Positions 1,980 through 8,199 of a stretch of 64,000 nt of DNA are shown piece by piece. How positions within the stretch are numbered: position 1 is the stretch's first letter; each line of letters starts with the position of its first letter. The stretch covers positions 1 through 64,000 of the forward strand of contig MNWW01000067.1 in the NCBI GenBank assembly GCA_001871415.1. The letters are read 5' to 3'. The position numbers were made by a program, and so were the translations under genes. The DNA is from Candidatus Woesearchaeota archaeon CG1_02_57_44. Its GTDB lineage: Archaea; Nanobdellota; Nanobdellia; Woesearchaeales; CG1-02-57-44. The notes beneath the pieces were generated by a model. That model ran no database searches. It had not been told where the DNA came from and was given only the letters and a program-made list of their open reading frames with translations.

Positions 1980-3017
1980 CTATTTCGGCATTGCCTTGCG
2001 GAACTGCTCGAGAAATGTCTTGAACTGGTCAGCGCGCACCTGCGCGCCGCAGGCGTGCTCGTGGCCGCCACCATGCCCTTCAATCCCTTGCAATGCCTGC
2101 TCGAGCACTGGCGGCAGGATGAAATTGCGCGCGCGCATGCTCATCTTCACCAGGCCATCTTTCTCACGACCAACGATGATGACCATGTCCTGATTGTCAT
2201 AGAGCATCCGATTGGCGATATCCTTGCTGAAACTGTCCTTGCTGCCTGCGTAGATCCAGCAGATGATACCGTCCTTGGGCTTCGTCTGTCTCGCCTCGGA
2301 CAGGAGGTCTTCATACTTGCGGTTGACCTTGCTGAACAGGTCCATGATGAACACTGCCCGTTCGGTCTTTGCTTCCATCAGTTCTTCGGGTCCGTCCATG
2401 CCGGCGATGTGCTCGATGCACTGCATGGCTAAGGATGTCCTGGTCTTGAGCATGAAGGAGAAGACAAAGACCAATCGTCCAAGTGGCGTCGCGAACAGCG
2501 CATCGTCAGGGTTCTTGACCTTTGCTGGCAGCAGAGAGGGATATCGTCGCTTGAATTCCTCCGCGAACCATGGCCAATGCCAGTCGCCGATGGCGCCGAT
2601 GGCCGCGAGCCAAAGGTCTTTTTGATTGACTTCGTAGGCCATCACTGACGCAGGGATATTATCGTTCTTGTTGGCCAGCCGTGGATTATAGTAGCGCACG
2701 CCTTTCTTGGGATTCGGGCCATGATGGTCAAGCCAGCACACGGGCGTTTTTGCCCGGTCGATGAAATCCTGCTCGACATTATAGAGGTCTGAGACGAATA
2801 TGCGGTCTGGTCGGTATTCTTTCACCTTGGCATAATACCTGCTATCGACGCTTGGCACGCTCTTGACCATGATGCCATGGCCGCGCATGATGAGCCGGTA
2901 GAGCAGCAGATAAGAGCAGACCCCATCAGGGTCGTCATGGAAGAAAAACAGCGGATTGATGGAATCGTCCAGGAAATCGCGGACTTCCTCAGCTTCCGCA
3001 CCCGTCATGCCTTTCAT
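1980..3017 (-). CDS. DHH/DHHA1 family phosphoesterase
   Basis: HDDPDG, LDHH and GGGHEHACG motifs. Confidence 0.9.
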   Translation of the reverse strand: MKGMTGAEAEEVRDFLDDSINPLFFFHDDPDGVCSYLLLYRLIMRGHGIMVKSVPSVDSRYYAKVKEYRPDRIFVSDLYNVEQDFIDRAKTPVCWLDHHGPNPKKGVRYYNPRLANKNDNIPASVMAYEVNQKDLWLAAIGAIGDWHWPWFAEEFKRRYPSLLPAKVKNPDDALFATPLGRLVFVFSFMLKTRTSLAMQCIEHIAGMDGPEELMEAKTERAVFIMDLFSKVNRKYEDLLSEARQTKPKDGIICWIYAGSKDSFSKDIANRMLYDNQDMVIIVGREKDGLVKMSMRARNFILPPVLEQALQGIEGHGGGHEHACGAQVRADQFKTFLEQFRKAMPK

Positions 3018-3044: not shown

Positions 3045-3500
3045 CTAAGTTTTGGCGATGAGGGTCATCAGGTAGTCCTTGAAGCGCTTCTTATAGAGCC
3101 GCCAGGCGTCTTTGTTGAATGCGTGCACCTTTATATGCACCTCCTTTAGGCCCTGTCGCCTTGCCCATGCCATGCAGGCCGTGAGGAGCTGTGAGCCGAT
3201 GCCTTTGCCACGATGCCCGTTTTTCGCATAGAGATGAAAGATGTAGGCGTACTTTCGTGTGCGGTATTCCTGGCCGGATTTTTTCACTTCCATGCCAGCG
3301 TATGCGGTCAGTTCCTTTCCTTCCTGAGCGACAAAATACGCGCAGGTATCGCGCCTGAGGTCGCGGCCCAGCCGAGGACCGATATGACTCCTGTATGACG
3401 GGTCTATGCGGTCATCAGTCCCTGATTCCCAGTCAAAGAACTCCTGCTTGAGCTTGAGCAGCTGCGGGTAATCATCGACCGTCGCTTGGCGGATGCGCAT
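3045..3500 (-). CDS. GNAT family N-acetyltransferase
   Basis: MRIRQAT start, HRGKGIG acetyl-CoA motif, N..A..LY motif. Confidence 0.9.
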   Translation of the reverse strand: MRIRQATVDDYPQLLKLKQEFFDWESGTDDRIDPSYRSHIGPRLGRDLRRDTCAYFVAQEGKELTAYAGMEVKKSGQEYRTRKYAYIFHLYAKNGHRGKGIGSQLLTACMAWARRQGLKEVHIKVHAFNKDAWRLYKKRFKDYLMTLIAKT

Positions 3501-3562
3501 GTCAGGTCAGGCATACAATATTCCTTTAATAATTGTCGTATATACCTGATGCATCTCCTGTC

Positions 3563-3752
3563 CGGGCTGGCCGGGGCCCGGCTCTGTCCTGAATCTCGTT
3601 TGACTATGCCAGCAGCGGGCTTCGGCGGTGTTCCCACCAGTAACGGATTGACATCCCCGAAGGGGGCATCCCCCTGTCAATGCGCAAAATGCGACACATC
3701 AGCCTTCGCAATTGCTGCTGGCTGGACTCTTAGGACAGAGCCCCGGCGCCCG
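3563..3752 (+). ncRNA. candidate structured non-coding RNA (rod-like, ~190 nt)
   Basis: Nested complementarity gccggg/cccggc, gctctgtcctga/ttaggacagagc, gccagcagcg/tgctgctggc; TATA-like gtatatac ~20 nt upstream; T6 run just downstream; strand uncertain. Confidence 0.55.
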
Positions 3753-3787
3753 ATACTTTTTTATTCACCGAGCCATTTTGGCTTGAC

Positions 3788-6343
3788 ATGCCCTCGGACA
3801 AGGATATCAAGAAGGAATTCAAGCTTGAAGCCAGCAAGAACCCGGACAAGTACTACGCGACCAGTGTGCTCAAGGCAGAGGGCTTCTCCCGCAAACAATG
3901 CGCATGCGGCACGTTCTTCTGGAGCGTGAACGCTGACCAGAAGACCTGCGGCGATCCTGTCTGCTCCGGCGGTTTTAGGTTCATCGGCGAAAAGGCGAAG
4001 GATGCCAGCGAGACAGGCCTTGACTATGTGGGCGTCTGGAAGAAATTCGCGGCCATGTTCAAGGACGCTGGCTATACACCCATCCCCCGGTATCCTGTGG
4101 TCGCACGGTGGCGTGATGATACTGACTTCGTGCAGGCGAGCATCTATGACTTCCAGCCGTATGTCGTGTCTGGCGAGGTCGAGCCTCCGGCAAACCCCTT
4201 GGTCGTCCCGCAGTTCTGTCTGCGCTTCAATGACATCGACAATGTCGGCATCACGGGCGCGCACTACACGGGCTTTGACATGATAGGTCAGCATGCGTTC
4301 CTCCCGCCAGAGCAATGGAGCCAGCCGCGCTTCTTCGGCGATATCCACAAGTGGCTCAAGAACGGTCTTGGCCTGCCCAATGAGGAGATCACATTCCATG
4401 AGGACGCGTGGGCAGGCGGGGGCAACTTCGGTCCCTGCATGGAGTATTTCTCCAAAGGCATGGAGCTTGGCAACCAGGTCTACATGATGTATGAGGTCAC
4501 TGCGGCGGGACCGCGTGAGCTCAAGCTCAAGGTGCTGGACATGGGCATGGGCCATGAGCGCAACGCATGGTTCGCGGCCGGCGCGCAGACAAGCTACGAG
4601 AGCACATTCCCCACAGTGATGGCATCGCTTCGCGCCAGGACGGGTGTGAAGGCCGACCCTCACTTCCGGCGCCAGTTCCTTCCGCTCGCATCGTTCCTGA
4701 ACCTCGATGAGACTGACGATATCAACAAGCAGTGGCAGATGGTCGCAGACAAGCTCAAGATGGATATTACAGAAGTCAAGGAGAAGGCGCTCTCTGACGC
4801 TGCGCTGTACTCTGTCGCAGAGCACTCGAGGGCGCTGCTGGTCGCGTTGGCTGACGGCGCGCTGCCCAGCAATGTGGGCGGCGGCTATAACCTGCGCACG
4901 ATACTGCGGCGCGCGCTGGACTTCATCGAGCAGCGCTCCTGGGATATCGACCTCGCTGACGTGGCAGAGCAGCACGCGCGCTATCTGAAACCACTCTATC
5001 CTGAACTAGTCGAGAACCTGGAGAATGTCAAGACCATCCTCGCCGTGGAGAAGCGCAAGCACCAGGAGACGAGGTCGAGGGCCGGAGGGTTGGTCAGGAA
5101 AGCACTTGCTGCTGGTATCTCGACAGACAAGATGGTCGAGCTCTATGACAGCCATGGCATCATGCCCTCAGAGGTCGTGCGTGAGGCAAGAGCGCAGGAC
5201 CTGAAGCTTGCGGTTCCTGATAATTTCTTTTCCCTGGTCGCTGAGCGCCATGAGCAGGCTGAGCAGGCGACTGCCACAGTGAAAGCTGAAGGTCTTGATC
5301 TGGAAGGGATCCCCGGGACGGATGCTCTCTATCTCGGCGACTGGCAGGAGGTCAGCAGCGAAGGCGTGGTGCTCAAGGTCATCGGTACGGACGTGGTGCT
5401 GGACAAGACCGCGGCGTATCCGACGAGCGGCGGTCAGCTGCATGATGTCGGCATGCTCGAAGGTCCTGACAGCGGGACGTATGAGATACTCGACGTGTTC
5501 AAGCAGGGAGCGTGCATCGTGCACCGGCTCAGCGAAGCGCCCAAGCTTGCAGCAGGGGATGCGGTCAGGGTCTCGCTGGACCTTGATCGCAGGCGCCAGC
5601 TCGCGCAGCATCATACCGCGACACACCTCATCGGAGCCGCCGCCCGCAAGGTCCTGGGCAGTCACATCAACCAAGCGGGCGCCAGAAAGACCCTCGAGAA
5701 GGCGACGCTGGACATCACGCACTACCAGAATGTCTCTGACGAGGAGAAGAAAGCGATTGAGACCGAGGCGAATCTCCTGGTCAAGCAGGATATTCCTGTG
5801 GTGAAATCATTGCTGGCGCGCAACGACGCGGAGAAGCGCTACGGTATGCGCATCTATCAAGGTGGCGCTGTGCCGGGCAGGCAGATTCGCATCGTCGAGA
5901 TACAGGGCGTGGACATCCAGGCCTGCGGCGGTACGCACCTGAACCATACTGGCGAGGTTGGCACTATCCGCATCATCAGGAGCAGCAAGGTGCAGGACGG
6001 TGTGGTGCGCCTGGAGTTTGTCGCCGGCGCTGCCAGGGAAGCGGTAGCGTCAGAGGCCGGCGGTATCCTCGAGGAAGCGGTGGCGATACTGGGCTGCCCG
6101 CCAGCGCAGGTCCCGGGGAGGACCGCGGAGCTGTTCACCAAGTGGAAGCAGATAGTCAAGAAGGGTAGGAAGGACATTGACGCGACGCTGGTCAGTGTCG
6201 AGGAGACATCAGGGGACATCCTGAAGGCGACCGCTGACGTGCTGAAGACGCAGCCCGAGCACATCCCCAAGACGCTGCGCAGGTTCTTGGCGGAGATCGA
6301 AGTGGCGAAGGACAACGCTGACGCGGTCCAAGCTGCTCAGTGA
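3788..6343 (+). CDS. alaS: alanine--tRNA ligase, archaeal type
   Basis: N-terminal Zn motif, RYPVVARWRDD..ASI, HHTATH and CGGTH editing motifs. Confidence 0.97.
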   Translation: MPSDKDIKKEFKLEASKNPDKYYATSVLKAEGFSRKQCACGTFFWSVNADQKTCGDPVCSGGFRFIGEKAKDASETGLDYVGVWKKFAAMFKDAGYTPIPRYPVVARWRDDTDFVQASIYDFQPYVVSGEVEPPANPLVVPQFCLRFNDIDNVGITGAHYTGFDMIGQHAFLPPEQWSQPRFFGDIHKWLKNGLGLPNEEITFHEDAWAGGGNFGPCMEYFSKGMELGNQVYMMYEVTAAGPRELKLKVLDMGMGHERNAWFAAGAQTSYESTFPTVMASLRARTGVKADPHFRRQFLPLASFLNLDETDDINKQWQMVADKLKMDITEVKEKALSDAALYSVAEHSRALLVALADGALPSNVGGGYNLRTILRRALDFIEQRSWDIDLADVAEQHARYLKPLYPELVENLENVKTILAVEKRKHQETRSRAGGLVRKALAAGISTDKMVELYDSHGIMPSEVVREARAQDLKLAVPDNFFSLVAERHEQAEQATATVKAEGLDLEGIPGTDALYLGDWQEVSSEGVVLKVIGTDVVLDKTAAYPTSGGQLHDVGMLEGPDSGTYEILDVFKQGACIVHRLSEAPKLAAGDAVRVSLDLDRRRQLAQHHTATHLIGAAARKVLGSHINQAGARKTLEKATLDITHYQNVSDEEKKAIETEANLLVKQDIPVVKSLLARNDAEKRYGMRIYQGGAVPGRQIRIVEIQGVDIQACGGTHLNHTGEVGTIRIIRSSKVQDGVVRLEFVAGAAREAVASEAGGILEEAVAILGCPPAQVPGRTAELFTKWKQIVKKGRKDIDATLVSVEETSGDILKATADVLKTQPEHIPKTLRRFLAEIEVAKDNADAVQAAQ

Positions 6344-6438: not shown

Positions 6439-6489
6439 TTTCTCGTCGATGTAATTGTGCCTACTGCCATCGGTTCCAAGGTGATTTTC

Positions 6490-7305
6490 ATGGATTTGTT
6501 TTCATCATACGCGTCGGATGACGCTGCTTTCCAGGTCGCGGGTCCTGCGCCGCGCGACTATACAGAGGATTTCAACCTGCTGCGCCAGCTGCTCTTTCCG
6601 GCGCAGTGGGGGCGTGACGCCGGCGATAGGCATACGCACCTGCGTCTGCGTGAGGACCTCCTTCATCGGCTCGCAGCGCAGCTCCCCGATGCGTCCATCG
6701 AGGCGCTGCTCGGTCAGCTGCCGGGCATCCGGGAGACACTGAAGACCGATGTGCAGGCCGCGTATGCCGGTGATCCTGCGGCGAAAAGCTACACAGAGAT
6801 CATCAGGGCATATCCGGGTTTCCAGGCCACCATGGTGCACCGTGTGGTGCATGAGCTGTATGTGCAGGGGTCTGATGAGGCCCTGCTCTACGCCCGTGAG
6901 CTGCAGGAGTACGCGCACAGTCGCACGGGCATCGATATCCACCCCGGCGCTTCAATCGGCGGGCATTTCTTCATCGACCATGGGACAGGCGTGGTCATCG
7001 GCGAGACCGCGGAGATAGGCGACTGGGTGCGCATCTATCAGGGTGTCACGCTCGGCGTGCTGCATTTCGAGAAAGACAAGAACGGTGATGGCACCGTGCT
7101 CGTGAAAGGCAACAAGCGGCATCCGACGCTCGGCAGCCATGTGGTCATCGGCGCGGGCGCGAAGGTGCTCGGGCCGGTCTCGATAGGAGACCATGTCAAT
7201 ATCGGCGCCAATGCCTGGATAGATGAGGACATCCAACCATATACGACGGTCTTTGTGGCAGAGCATCCTCGCCTGGAACGGCGCAGCAGGACTGGCAAAG
7301 GATAG
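6490..7305 (+). CDS. cysE: serine O-acetyltransferase (EpsC-type)
   Basis: GDPAA, YPG, GIDIHPGA, IDHGTGVVIGET, KRHPT motifs; SD AGGTGAT at 6479-6485. Confidence 0.95.
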   Translation: MDLFSSYASDDAAFQVAGPAPRDYTEDFNLLRQLLFPAQWGRDAGDRHTHLRLREDLLHRLAAQLPDASIEALLGQLPGIRETLKTDVQAAYAGDPAAKSYTEIIRAYPGFQATMVHRVVHELYVQGSDEALLYARELQEYAHSRTGIDIHPGASIGGHFFIDHGTGVVIGETAEIGDWVRIYQGVTLGVLHFEKDKNGDGTVLVKGNKRHPTLGSHVVIGAGAKVLGPVSIGDHVNIGANAWIDEDIQPYTTVFVAEHPRLERRSRTGKG

Positions 7306-7554: not shown

Positions 7555-8199
7555 TCAGAAATCGCCAAGGCTCGCCTGCTTTCCTTCGATCGCGTTCTTG
7601 TACGTCGCCCAGGACTTGCGGAAGAGGTGCTCGTATTCCGTATGGTACTTATTGAGGAACGCGACGGTCTTCGGGTCTGATGGATAGCCGGAGCCAAAGT
7701 CAATGCCTATCTCTGCCTTGATTGTCTCAATAGCAGCATCGCGCGTGGTCTTGGCGATGATGGACGCGGCTGCCACCGCGATATGGCGTTTGTCCGCCTG
7801 ATGCTCGAGCAGGAGCTTGCCCGGCTCTTTCACCATGGCGCTCATGAAGCCATGGAAACCGAGGATGTTGTTGCTCGGGCAGTCCATGATGTGCTGGTCT
7901 GCCTTGGACTTGCCGATGATCTCCGCGGCCTTGAGTGCCTCGAGCTGGTTGAGGTTGACGCCGGCTGCAGATGATGCGTCTATCTCTCCGGGCTTGATGA
8001 TCACCACGACGATGCTCTTTGCCAGCTGCTCGATGCTCGCCCTGGCGCGCTGTCGCTGCGCGGGGCTGAGCAGCTTGCTGTCCTTGACGTGCGCCGCCTT
8101 GAGCGCTGGCTCGTCTTTCTGGTCGATGACGCAACCGCAGATGACCAGCGGCCCTATGACCGGTCCGCGGCCAGCTTCGTCGATGCCTAGGATGCGCAT
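7555..8199 (-). CDS. rnhB: ribonuclease HII
   Basis: GIDEAGRGPVIGP, DSK, AASIIAK, GSGYPSDP motifs. Confidence 0.97.
   Translation of the reverse strand: MRILGIDEAGRGPVIGPLVICGCVIDQKDEPALKAAHVKDSKLLSPAQRQRARASIEQLAKSIVVVIIKPGEIDASSAAGVNLNQLEALKAAEIIGKSKADQHIMDCPSNNILGFHGFMSAMVKEPGKLLLEHQADKRHIAVAAASIIAKTTRDAAIETIKAEIGIDFGSGYPSDPKTVAFLNKYHTEYEHLFRKSWATYKNAIEGKQASLGDF

Follow-up and report, generated by a model that had tools for sequence, protein, structure and literature searches.

The stretch between a GNAT acetyltransferase gene and alaS in the genome of Candidatus Woesearchaeota archaeon CG1_02_57_44 raises the question of what kind of unit is located there, e.g., a structured RNA or a piece of mobile DNA. 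A sequence-only reading of the window (the whole stretch of DNA that was analysed, 64,000 nucleotides of contig MNWW01000067.1) described at this place an unassigned rod-shaped RNA of about 190 nt and left four options for it: a new archaeal ncRNA, a very divergent SRP-like RNA, an alaS leader, or a MITE. It is the last option that has been borne out, since copies dispersed in the genome and accompanied by target-site duplications were found, i.e., exactly the pattern named in that reading as fatal to a new RNA. The whole is best explained, with a probability of roughly 0.78, by a type II MITE moved in trans, docking at promoters and carrying a folded core with a triple-helix head. The actual unit is shorter than the proposed one and occupies 163 bp; the element and its immediate surroundings are as follows:

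3045..3500, minus strand: GNAT acetyltransferase gene, 151 aa (PF00583, E 3e-18)
3525..3538, minus strand: predicted BRE-TATA of the GNAT gene as read from the sequence, 25 nt before its ATG
3571..3579, plus strand: left target-site duplicate, 9 bp, agreeing with 3743-3751 at 8/9 bases (k=9 fits best)
3580..3742, no strand assigned: type II MITE, whole element, 163 bp, present in the genome as 7 full copies of 90-100% identity
3580..3597, plus strand: 18-bp terminal inverted repeat on the left; an IS5-family remnant (G000:C53:72496) has an identical left end
3725..3742, minus strand: 18-bp terminal inverted repeat on the right; remnants on contigs C34 and C8 have identical right ends
3743..3751, plus strand: right copy of the target-site duplication; the predicted alaS BRE begins with its last base
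3751..3765, plus strand: predicted BRE (3751-3757) and TATA box (3758-3765) of alaS, fitting the family flank profile C-R-N-A-A-N-N-TTTAWATA and holding a run of six T
3788..6343, plus strand: alaS, alanyl-tRNA synthetase, 851 aa, predicted leaderless (PF01411, E 4e-75; PF07973)

Farther off in the window, there are ORFs which we take, by their motifs, to resemble a radical-SAM methylthiotransferase (535-1710), a DHH-family nuclease (1980-3017), a serine acetyltransferase (6457-7305), and RNase HII (7555-8199).

A DNA search of the element's own genome (1.53 Mb in 77 contigs, 82% complete) returned seven full-length copies and two partial ones, and the boundaries of all seven coincide with the bases equivalent to window positions 3580 and 3742. 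The element has the size and make-up of a MITE (<500 bp, no transposase gene, terminal inverted repeats), its two terminal inverted repeats matching each other at 14 of 18 positions. The duplicated targets agree at 9/9 bases in three of the full copies, at 8/9 in two (the window copy included), at 7/9 in one, and at 3/9 in one; the target-site duplication expected of a MITE is, hence, present at 8/9 or better in five of the seven. One of the partial copies (94 bp, G000:C76:9910-10003) arose by internal deletion and has an 8/9 duplication of its own; the other (G000:C25:2910-2997) is truncated, lacking the left half. The other copies of the MITE adjoin unrelated genes, and contigs from public sequencing runs end at the element boundaries, then run into many different flanks. 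No empty pre-insertion site was seen in the contigs of eight public runs (with patchy cover in four of the eight), and no genome of the same family was present among the genomes sampled. Overall, it is almost certain that the window element is a type II MITE of IS5-family lineage; it would be moved in trans, in a cut-and-paste manner, by a DDE transposase of the IS5 family.

Certain irregularities were noted among the copies. The copy with the 3/9 duplication (G000:C49:5734-5897, locus L193) may be a chimeric assembly or a recombinant; contigs of several runs carry variants of its left half with other sequence following the head (the conserved hairpin described below). Three breaks fall within the head (window 3655-3665), namely those of the deleted copy, of the truncated copy, and of a further loose end seen in reads; this place may represent a breakage or recombination hot spot. 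Extra flanks in the public runs, missing from the assembly, point to more copies in the population; in four of these flanks, a TATA-like run was spotted by eye 15-17 bp from the element end.

A stand-alone housekeeping ncRNA, a divergent SRP-like RNA, or an alaS leader would be in line with the strong fold and with the position between two genes. At the same time, the covariance models of Rfam 15 (a search suggested in the sequence-only reading) gave nothing on the element at E<=10, yielded at gathering scores three tRNAs only from the whole window, produced just five chance matches in 20 relatives (E 0.66-6.1), and showed no match for the element in 12 further loci. The genome harbors its own archaeal SRP RNA (RF01857, 125 bits, G000:C67) and RNase P RNA (RF00373, 104 bits, G000:C35), neither model having a match at the element; since these RNAs reside on other contigs, a divergent SRP RNA is not needed. 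The alaS leader is excluded because the predicted alaS BRE-TATA lies downstream of the element, and against a new stand-alone ncRNA stand the multiple copies with terminal inverted repeats and target-site duplications as well as the patchy distribution. A resemblance to 6S RNA comes to mind for a rod with a central bubble; this reading found no support in Rfam. The T6 run (3757-3762), formerly considered to be the terminator of a stand-alone transcript, belongs to a BRE-TATA arrangement that precedes the alaS ATG (3788) by about 25 nt and, therefore, reads as the alaS promoter. The TATA-like run thought to start this transcript does exist (3539-3544), but it abuts the predicted GNAT BRE-TATA, and the other copies need no equivalent of it. 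Taken together, these RNA readings retain hardly any credibility, and, in these genomes, members of the MITE family can easily be mistaken for a "new RNA".

The ends of the element lead to its parent IS. One transposase remnant, located farther on in the same contig, begins with the 18 bp of the left end, and two further remnants end as the element does on the right; the 82%-complete assembly shows four transposase fragments only and no intact gene. The C-terminal fragment matched 19 of 201 genomes of the order, and, in other genomes, 8 of 23 loci hold a full IS of 885-908 bp, in which the ends are these or sister ones and the 9-bp duplication agrees at 8/9 or better. The cognate IS of the MITE, sharing its ends and duplication length, is thus represented by remnants here and by full elements in relatives. 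The parent transposases are encoded by a single ORF of about 270 aa with invariant D100, D170, and E222; the PF01609 domain (DDE_Tnp_1) is present in every one of 120 homologues among the matches listed. The nearest plasmid-borne relatives (best 20 of 71) are archaeal IS5 proteins at 25-30% identity, including the ISHla2 and ISHvo2 families. The best family for the parent transposases is NF033579 (IS5), with 118-131 bits in six of six full-length proteins vs. a curated cut-off of 140 bits for membership. GGC ends combined with a 9-bp duplication mark the IS903 group. Both traits of this group, covered by NF033579, were found in the parent elements (for the reference ends, see Table 2 in PMC6382973). 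Since the score stays below the cut-off despite such ends and duplication, the transposase is placed outside the IS903 group, so the parent, as judged from its sequence, is an IS5-family element that is IS903-like in ends and duplication only.

Two observations concern the IS elements as such. In the parent IS (the 5' ends of L164-L183; L037), a hairpin is conserved immediately inward of the left end, with a G-rich run between it and the start codon; this hairpin is not homologous to the MITE core. An IS5 element from a Methanomethylovorans plasmid (L301:212-1212) has sister ends of the GGCTCTGTAGAAAA type and, by eye, a duplication agreeing at 7/9 bases; an AT-rich run lies beyond the left end, at 14 bp from it. 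To judge from this element, the promoter-edge targeting discussed below may extend beyond the order.

In public genomes, an exact two-end pattern with a spacing of 148-178 bp allowed retrieved 112 stretches, 94 of them 162-166 bp long, and a 9-bp duplication with at most one mismatch was found in 79 of 110 testable matches (for k=8 and k=10, in 10 and 3, respectively). The titles of the matches comprise Woesearchaeota/Nanoarchaeota, a block labelled Methanosarcinales, and four bacterial entries; the latter four lack both the duplication and the TATA motif, and a model built from 56 members (R1) gave no match in the one bacterial genome searched with it. Archaea outside the order were considered as hosts and dismissed: the Methanosarcinales titles look like mislabels, since two such genomes share match coordinates with genomes of the same order. 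Of 151 genomes of the order searched with the R1 model, 50 gave a match, two of these being unpublished; a sample of the phylum, likewise of 151 genomes, gave 23, every one from the same order. One exact head pattern was found in none of the viral contigs searched. Such a family, patchy and multi-copy, fits a mobile element and not a housekeeping RNA. The interiors of the members share 58% identity on average, and a comparison of 56 interiors with 12 IS sequences gave only matches of 13-31 bp at the chance level (E 0.003-0.04). The similarity to the parent IS is limited to the ends, which is the sense of "type II" as set out in the relevant part of PMC10969869. The same core is encountered between at least five end types, with duplications of 8-10 bp and at a length of 161-169 bp, and 38 of the 112 end-pair matches lack the head by the first pattern used.

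Larger elements (L009, L042, L045, L048; 250-303 bp) with the same ends and 9-bp duplications occur as well, some with extra hairpins in the core. Tandem or nested cores, some with no recognisable ends, were seen beside intact elements (L020:1355-1673, L017, L062, L291-L292); this is what repeated insertion at one promoter edge would give.

The sites of insertion follow a rule. In a set of 58 elements that bear the core, have a duplication, and come with long flanks, a TTWWAW motif starts 14-18 bp outside one end in 51 cases, with a peak at 17, vs. 4-5 of 58 in each of four control windows; the motif is on the left in 24, on the right in 29, and on both sides in 2 of the 51. An ATG is located at 39-52 in 37 of 53 flanks with TTWWAW vs. 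14 of 63 other flanks (in the window, the alaS ATG is at outward position 46). When one element per genome is counted, BRE-TATA is found 14-18 bp outside the end in 37 of 44, and the sliding control for the TTWWAW offset stands at 531/6144 (8.6%). Across five end classes, the offset was recorded in 81 of 97 elements (a set overlapping with the 58), and it is shared by 17 of 21 elements lacking the core and by 8/8 full-size parent ISs, seven of them at exactly 17; hence, it is to be ascribed to the transposase and not to the core. From the duplication to the TATA box, the sequence reads C-R-N-A-A, with A at position 12 in 50 and at position 13 in 63 of 70 flanks; both positions lay outside the search pattern, yet they are enriched for A. 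We take C-R-N-A-A at this place to be the archaeal BRE, and an assumed BRE/TATA consensus stands behind the prediction of the alaS promoter, too. In the GC-rich genome of the window, just three of seven full copies and none of three remnant ends pass the TATA test. The distance from the insertion to a core promoter element, the hallmark of promoter targeting, is fixed, and there is little doubt that the MITE lands at a fixed place at the promoter edge. The transposase likely docks on promoters bound by TBP/TFB, so that the element would be dropped at the upstream edge of the predicted BRE-TATA, in this case that of alaS. If so, promoter-edge insertion offers a compact safe-harbour integrator, and insertion scars can serve as markers of core promoters, within a base or two, in uncultured archaea lacking transcript data.

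A family member situated about 45 bp upstream of an RNase P RNA gene (L220:1142-1663) indicates that promoters of RNA genes are targets as well. Another copy (G000:C40:71) faces what appears by eye to be the 5' end of a tRNA, truncated by the start of the contig.

The rod described in the sequence-only reading is also real, if not in all its parts. Its helices are in place: cgggc (3563) with gcccg (3748), gccggg (3570) with cccggc (3742), gctctgtcctga (3581) with ttaggacagagc (3730), gccagcagcg (3608) with tgctgctggc (3713), ggtg (3627) with cacc (3635), ttgaca (3648) with tgtcaa (3675), and cgca (3683) with tgcg (3690). The two outermost of them, though present here, consist of the GC-rich target and its duplicate, since the 9-bp duplication flanks the element, and do not occur in the remaining six full copies; only the window copy has the cgca/tgcg hairpin, the others reading tgca or tcca there. 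The fold exceeds chance, as claimed (z -4.31 for the plus and -4.57 for the minus strand, with 0 of 200 shuffles equal), and the interior stems covary across the collected homologues. The parts of the core are as follows:

3608..3616, plus strand: inner stem P2, 5' arm, covarying across the family
3648..3680, plus strand: stem P4 (3648-3653 with 3675-3680), closing the head, supported by covariation
3654..3675, no strand assigned: conserved head with predicted base triples and three-way covariation, made up of the pyrimidine strand (3654-3658), loop (3659-3661), purine strand (3662-3666), a 3-nt linker, and the mirror tract (3670-3675)
3714..3722, plus strand: inner stem P2, 3' arm, covarying across the family

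Independently of any alignment, the arms of a member pair better with each other than with the arms of other members (10.4 vs. 6.6 for P2, 6.3 vs. 4.6 for P4). The model-fitted alignment shows 84% of cells paired vs. 64% in shuffles along with 480 double changes, a circular count, the pairs having been picked on the same alignment, one row of which is a reverse-strand duplicate. RNAalifold run on a plain MAFFT alignment recovered no more than the ends and the head hairpin, the stems being out of register; consequently, the R1 model is mostly a sequence profile. The core is, with high probability, folded and under selection, and the element most likely retains it to serve its own mobility or persistence, in the role of a folded spacer of a fixed length of about 165 bp, and not for host housekeeping. 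As a single strand, this non-IS core is predicted to take the shape of a rod with the triple-helix head.

For the head, 156 of 174 candidate matches were anchored (of those dropped, five false or reversed ones were removed by hand, the rest by the filter), and 111 were kept below 85% identity. In these 111 cores, position 3 of the head reads C-G-C in 92 and T-A-T in 15, with 4 others (107/111 concordant), and position 4 reads C-G-C in 71 and T-A-T in 31, with 9 others (102/111 concordant); off-diagonal positions show no association. In a separate alignment of 99 rows, unanchored corrected mutual information ranked the pair of the pyrimidine strand and the tract second overall (CC 61, TT 35, CT 3). 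With the head left out in building the tree, position 4 showed 22-24 changes; after correction for the tree, 6.2 of 8 independent pairs change the same way and 0 the opposite way (median p 0.03). For position 3, the corrected result is not significant (2.8 vs. 0.5 of 5, p 0.5), and two off-diagonal controls are both null. Base triples are the simplest reading of this parallel three-way covariation and a probable one.

The tract runs in a parallel register, hence no alternative Watson–Crick hairpin is available. Two other arrangements, the UNCG tetraloop register and an antiparallel hairpin of the purine strand with the tract, are contradicted by the covariation register. A K-turn was also considered for the tandem G.A pairs and set aside, there being, by eye, no 3-nt bulge in the right place. 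The triple of the head needs a crossover linker of 3-4 nt. In the intrastrand triplex classes I-IV, as outlined in PMC4666352, mirror-related strands are adjacent and joined by a fold-back loop, and none of these classes fits the order pyrimidine, purine, mirror pyrimidine; falling outside the four, the head would be a bulge-derived crossover triple.

The strand and the kind of molecule that folds can be approached through the mismatches. Where the hairpin strands disagree, the tract matches the pyrimidine strand (at position 1 in 51/51, at position 4 in 2/2, at position 5 in 41 vs. 16), the decoupling at position 1 resting partly on a C fixed by the search pattern. The TC/TC mismatches, equal to tandem G.A on the minus strand, are found in 79 of 111 cores at the 5' mini-hairpin and in 51 of 111 at P3 (vs. 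12.6% in chimeras), and mini-loops closed by G...A number 43 on the minus and 0 on the plus strand. Loops of the d(GNA) type and tandem G.A pairs are known to be stable. Folding z-scores separate neither the strands nor DNA from RNA. Purine-motif triplexes, according to the part of PMC4666352 dealing with them, do not form in RNA. The balance tilts slightly toward minus-strand single-stranded DNA as the folding species (with G.G-C / A.A-T triples, tandem G.A, and G-N-A mini-hairpins) over RNA.

Other explanations of the core have to be weighed against this one. The element being a MITE, its core might be a transcribed structured RNA, selfish or regulatory, travelling as a passenger between IS ends; its triples would be of the pyrimidine-motif C.G-C / U.A-U kind on the plus strand, or else the minus strand would carry a UNCG-type loop. 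UNCG loops are a class of RNA tetraloops, and the head loop reads U-N-C-G on the minus strand, UACG (75/111) and UUCG (10/111) being the commonest; the covarying stems and the excess of G-T over A-C among interior mismatches on the plus strand (14 vs. 3) point the same way. Pyrimidine-type triplexes, as stated in the corresponding part of PMC4666352, can occur in RNA. A transcript is, nevertheless, poorly compatible with the random orientation of the element to the adjacent promoter, 24 left and 29 right, which moreover points away from it; with a tract following the pyrimidine rather than the purine strand; with minus-strand mini-loops in the form of 23 GNA triloops and 18 GNNA showing no purine preference at position 3; and with the absence of a match in 101 of 151 genomes searched. 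An RNA is, accordingly, a possible but doubtful reading. Neutral palindromic DNA, its stems homogenised by template switching in inverted repeats and nothing in it selected, would explain why both strands fold equally, why one internally deleted and one truncated copy exist in this genome, why the head is missing by the first pattern from a part of the end-pair matches (38/112), and why variants of 250-303 bp occur. It is still improbable: correction between inverted repeats can neither yield the parallel, mirror-type covariation of the tract nor keep the TC/TC mismatches at fixed places (79/111), and the core, at 161-169 bp, has outlasted its ends, as seen over five end classes. If the folded and selected core is accepted, selection at the level of base triples on a core outlasting its ends contradicts the view of type II interiors as decayed filler.

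The promoter-edge position admits competing explanations, too. A preference for AT-rich DNA is common for MITEs (as reported in parts of PMC10969869 and PMC6382973), and ISH6 targets an AT-rich motif that is itself duplicated (per the portion of PMC3942029 concerned). With four of seven copies in this genome failing the TATA test, the transposase could read the sequence or bend of BRE-TATA directly, or purifying selection could have removed insertions elsewhere, no contact with TBP/TFB being involved. What speaks against this is that the motif lies outside the duplicated target and on one side only (both sides in 2/51), that it is confined to 5 bp and does not recur further upstream, although insertions surviving selection would be expected there as well, and that it carries the BRE bases along with a downstream ATG. 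Direct read-out or selection is, thus, a serious contender at rather less than even odds. Because the offset is sharp and one-sided, tethering by TBP/TFB is inferred, and guidance by these basal factors is marginally preferred over direct read-out of sequence or shape.

Several known systems resemble parts of this picture. ISC1058 belongs to the IS5 family and generates a 9-bp duplication. The non-autonomous archaeal element depending on its transposase in trans, SM3A of Sulfolobus (S. islandicus, 164 bp), is like the 163-bp MITE in length (PMC3718332); the passages describing it there mention neither a conserved folded core nor a promoter-edge position. Among 18,091 archaeal MITEs listed in PMC11602168, the present family may be included; one Woesearchaea genome reaches 105 MITEs per Mb, and the accessible part of that paper leaves core structure and targeting unmentioned. 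In the literature consulted, neither promoter-edge targeting nor a triple-type core was found described for archaea, no report of insertion with a constant spacing to an archaeal BRE-TATA was encountered, and a MITE combined with a triple helix of such kind was not found.

In bacteria, MITEAba12 with ISAba12 (Acinetobacter), along with the IS903-type GGC-ended IS5 elements, have 16-bp ends starting with GGCT and a 9-bp duplication, as here; the identity of MITEAba12 to the parent is likewise limited to the ends, and its length is similarly tight. It differs in being 113 bp long, 78% AT, weakly folded, and in preferring AT-rich DNA (all from the portion of PMC6382973 on this element). The BoxC, PIT, and TM repeats are, similarly, dispersed, intergenic, and endowed with G/C-rich triplex potential on both strands; as presented in PMC4666352, they fit classes I-IV and are not tied to mobile elements in E. 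coli. By contrast, the mirror strands of the head in the window are split by the purine strand, and the head forms a stem-closed bulge inside a MITE, with support from covariation.

The closest parallels in targeting are offered by TnGBS, the ISLre2 family, and the ISKra4 group, which insert at a fixed 15-17 bp upstream of the core promoter and, when their ends are near-symmetric, in either orientation, as here (according to the relevant sections of PMC3942029). These are bacterial, with a Mutator-like DDE enzyme and sigma-A promoters, whereas here an IS5-type enzyme meets the archaeal BRE-TATA. In yeast, Ty3 integrates position-specifically beside a TBP-containing factor, and its intasome contacts TBP in TFIIIB, as shown in the corresponding part of PMC8632968; Ty3 differs in using a retroelement integrase at Pol III genes, and for the window MITE the contact with TBP/TFB is a conjecture. 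If it is true, promoter-edge insertion by an IS5-type enzyme of 270 aa would extend the strategy of TnGBS/ISLre2 and Ty3 to archaeal TBP/TFB. Tentatively, and at less than even odds, the family can be viewed as an order-wide archaeal class in which a portable, selected, single-stranded module with a non-classical triple-helix head travels between the ends of several IS5-type lineages and is delivered, with base-pair precision, to the upstream edge of BRE by a DDE transposase tethered to TBP/TFB; archaea would thus possess their own version of Ty3 targeting, in which the cargo includes a folded cofactor made of nucleic acid.
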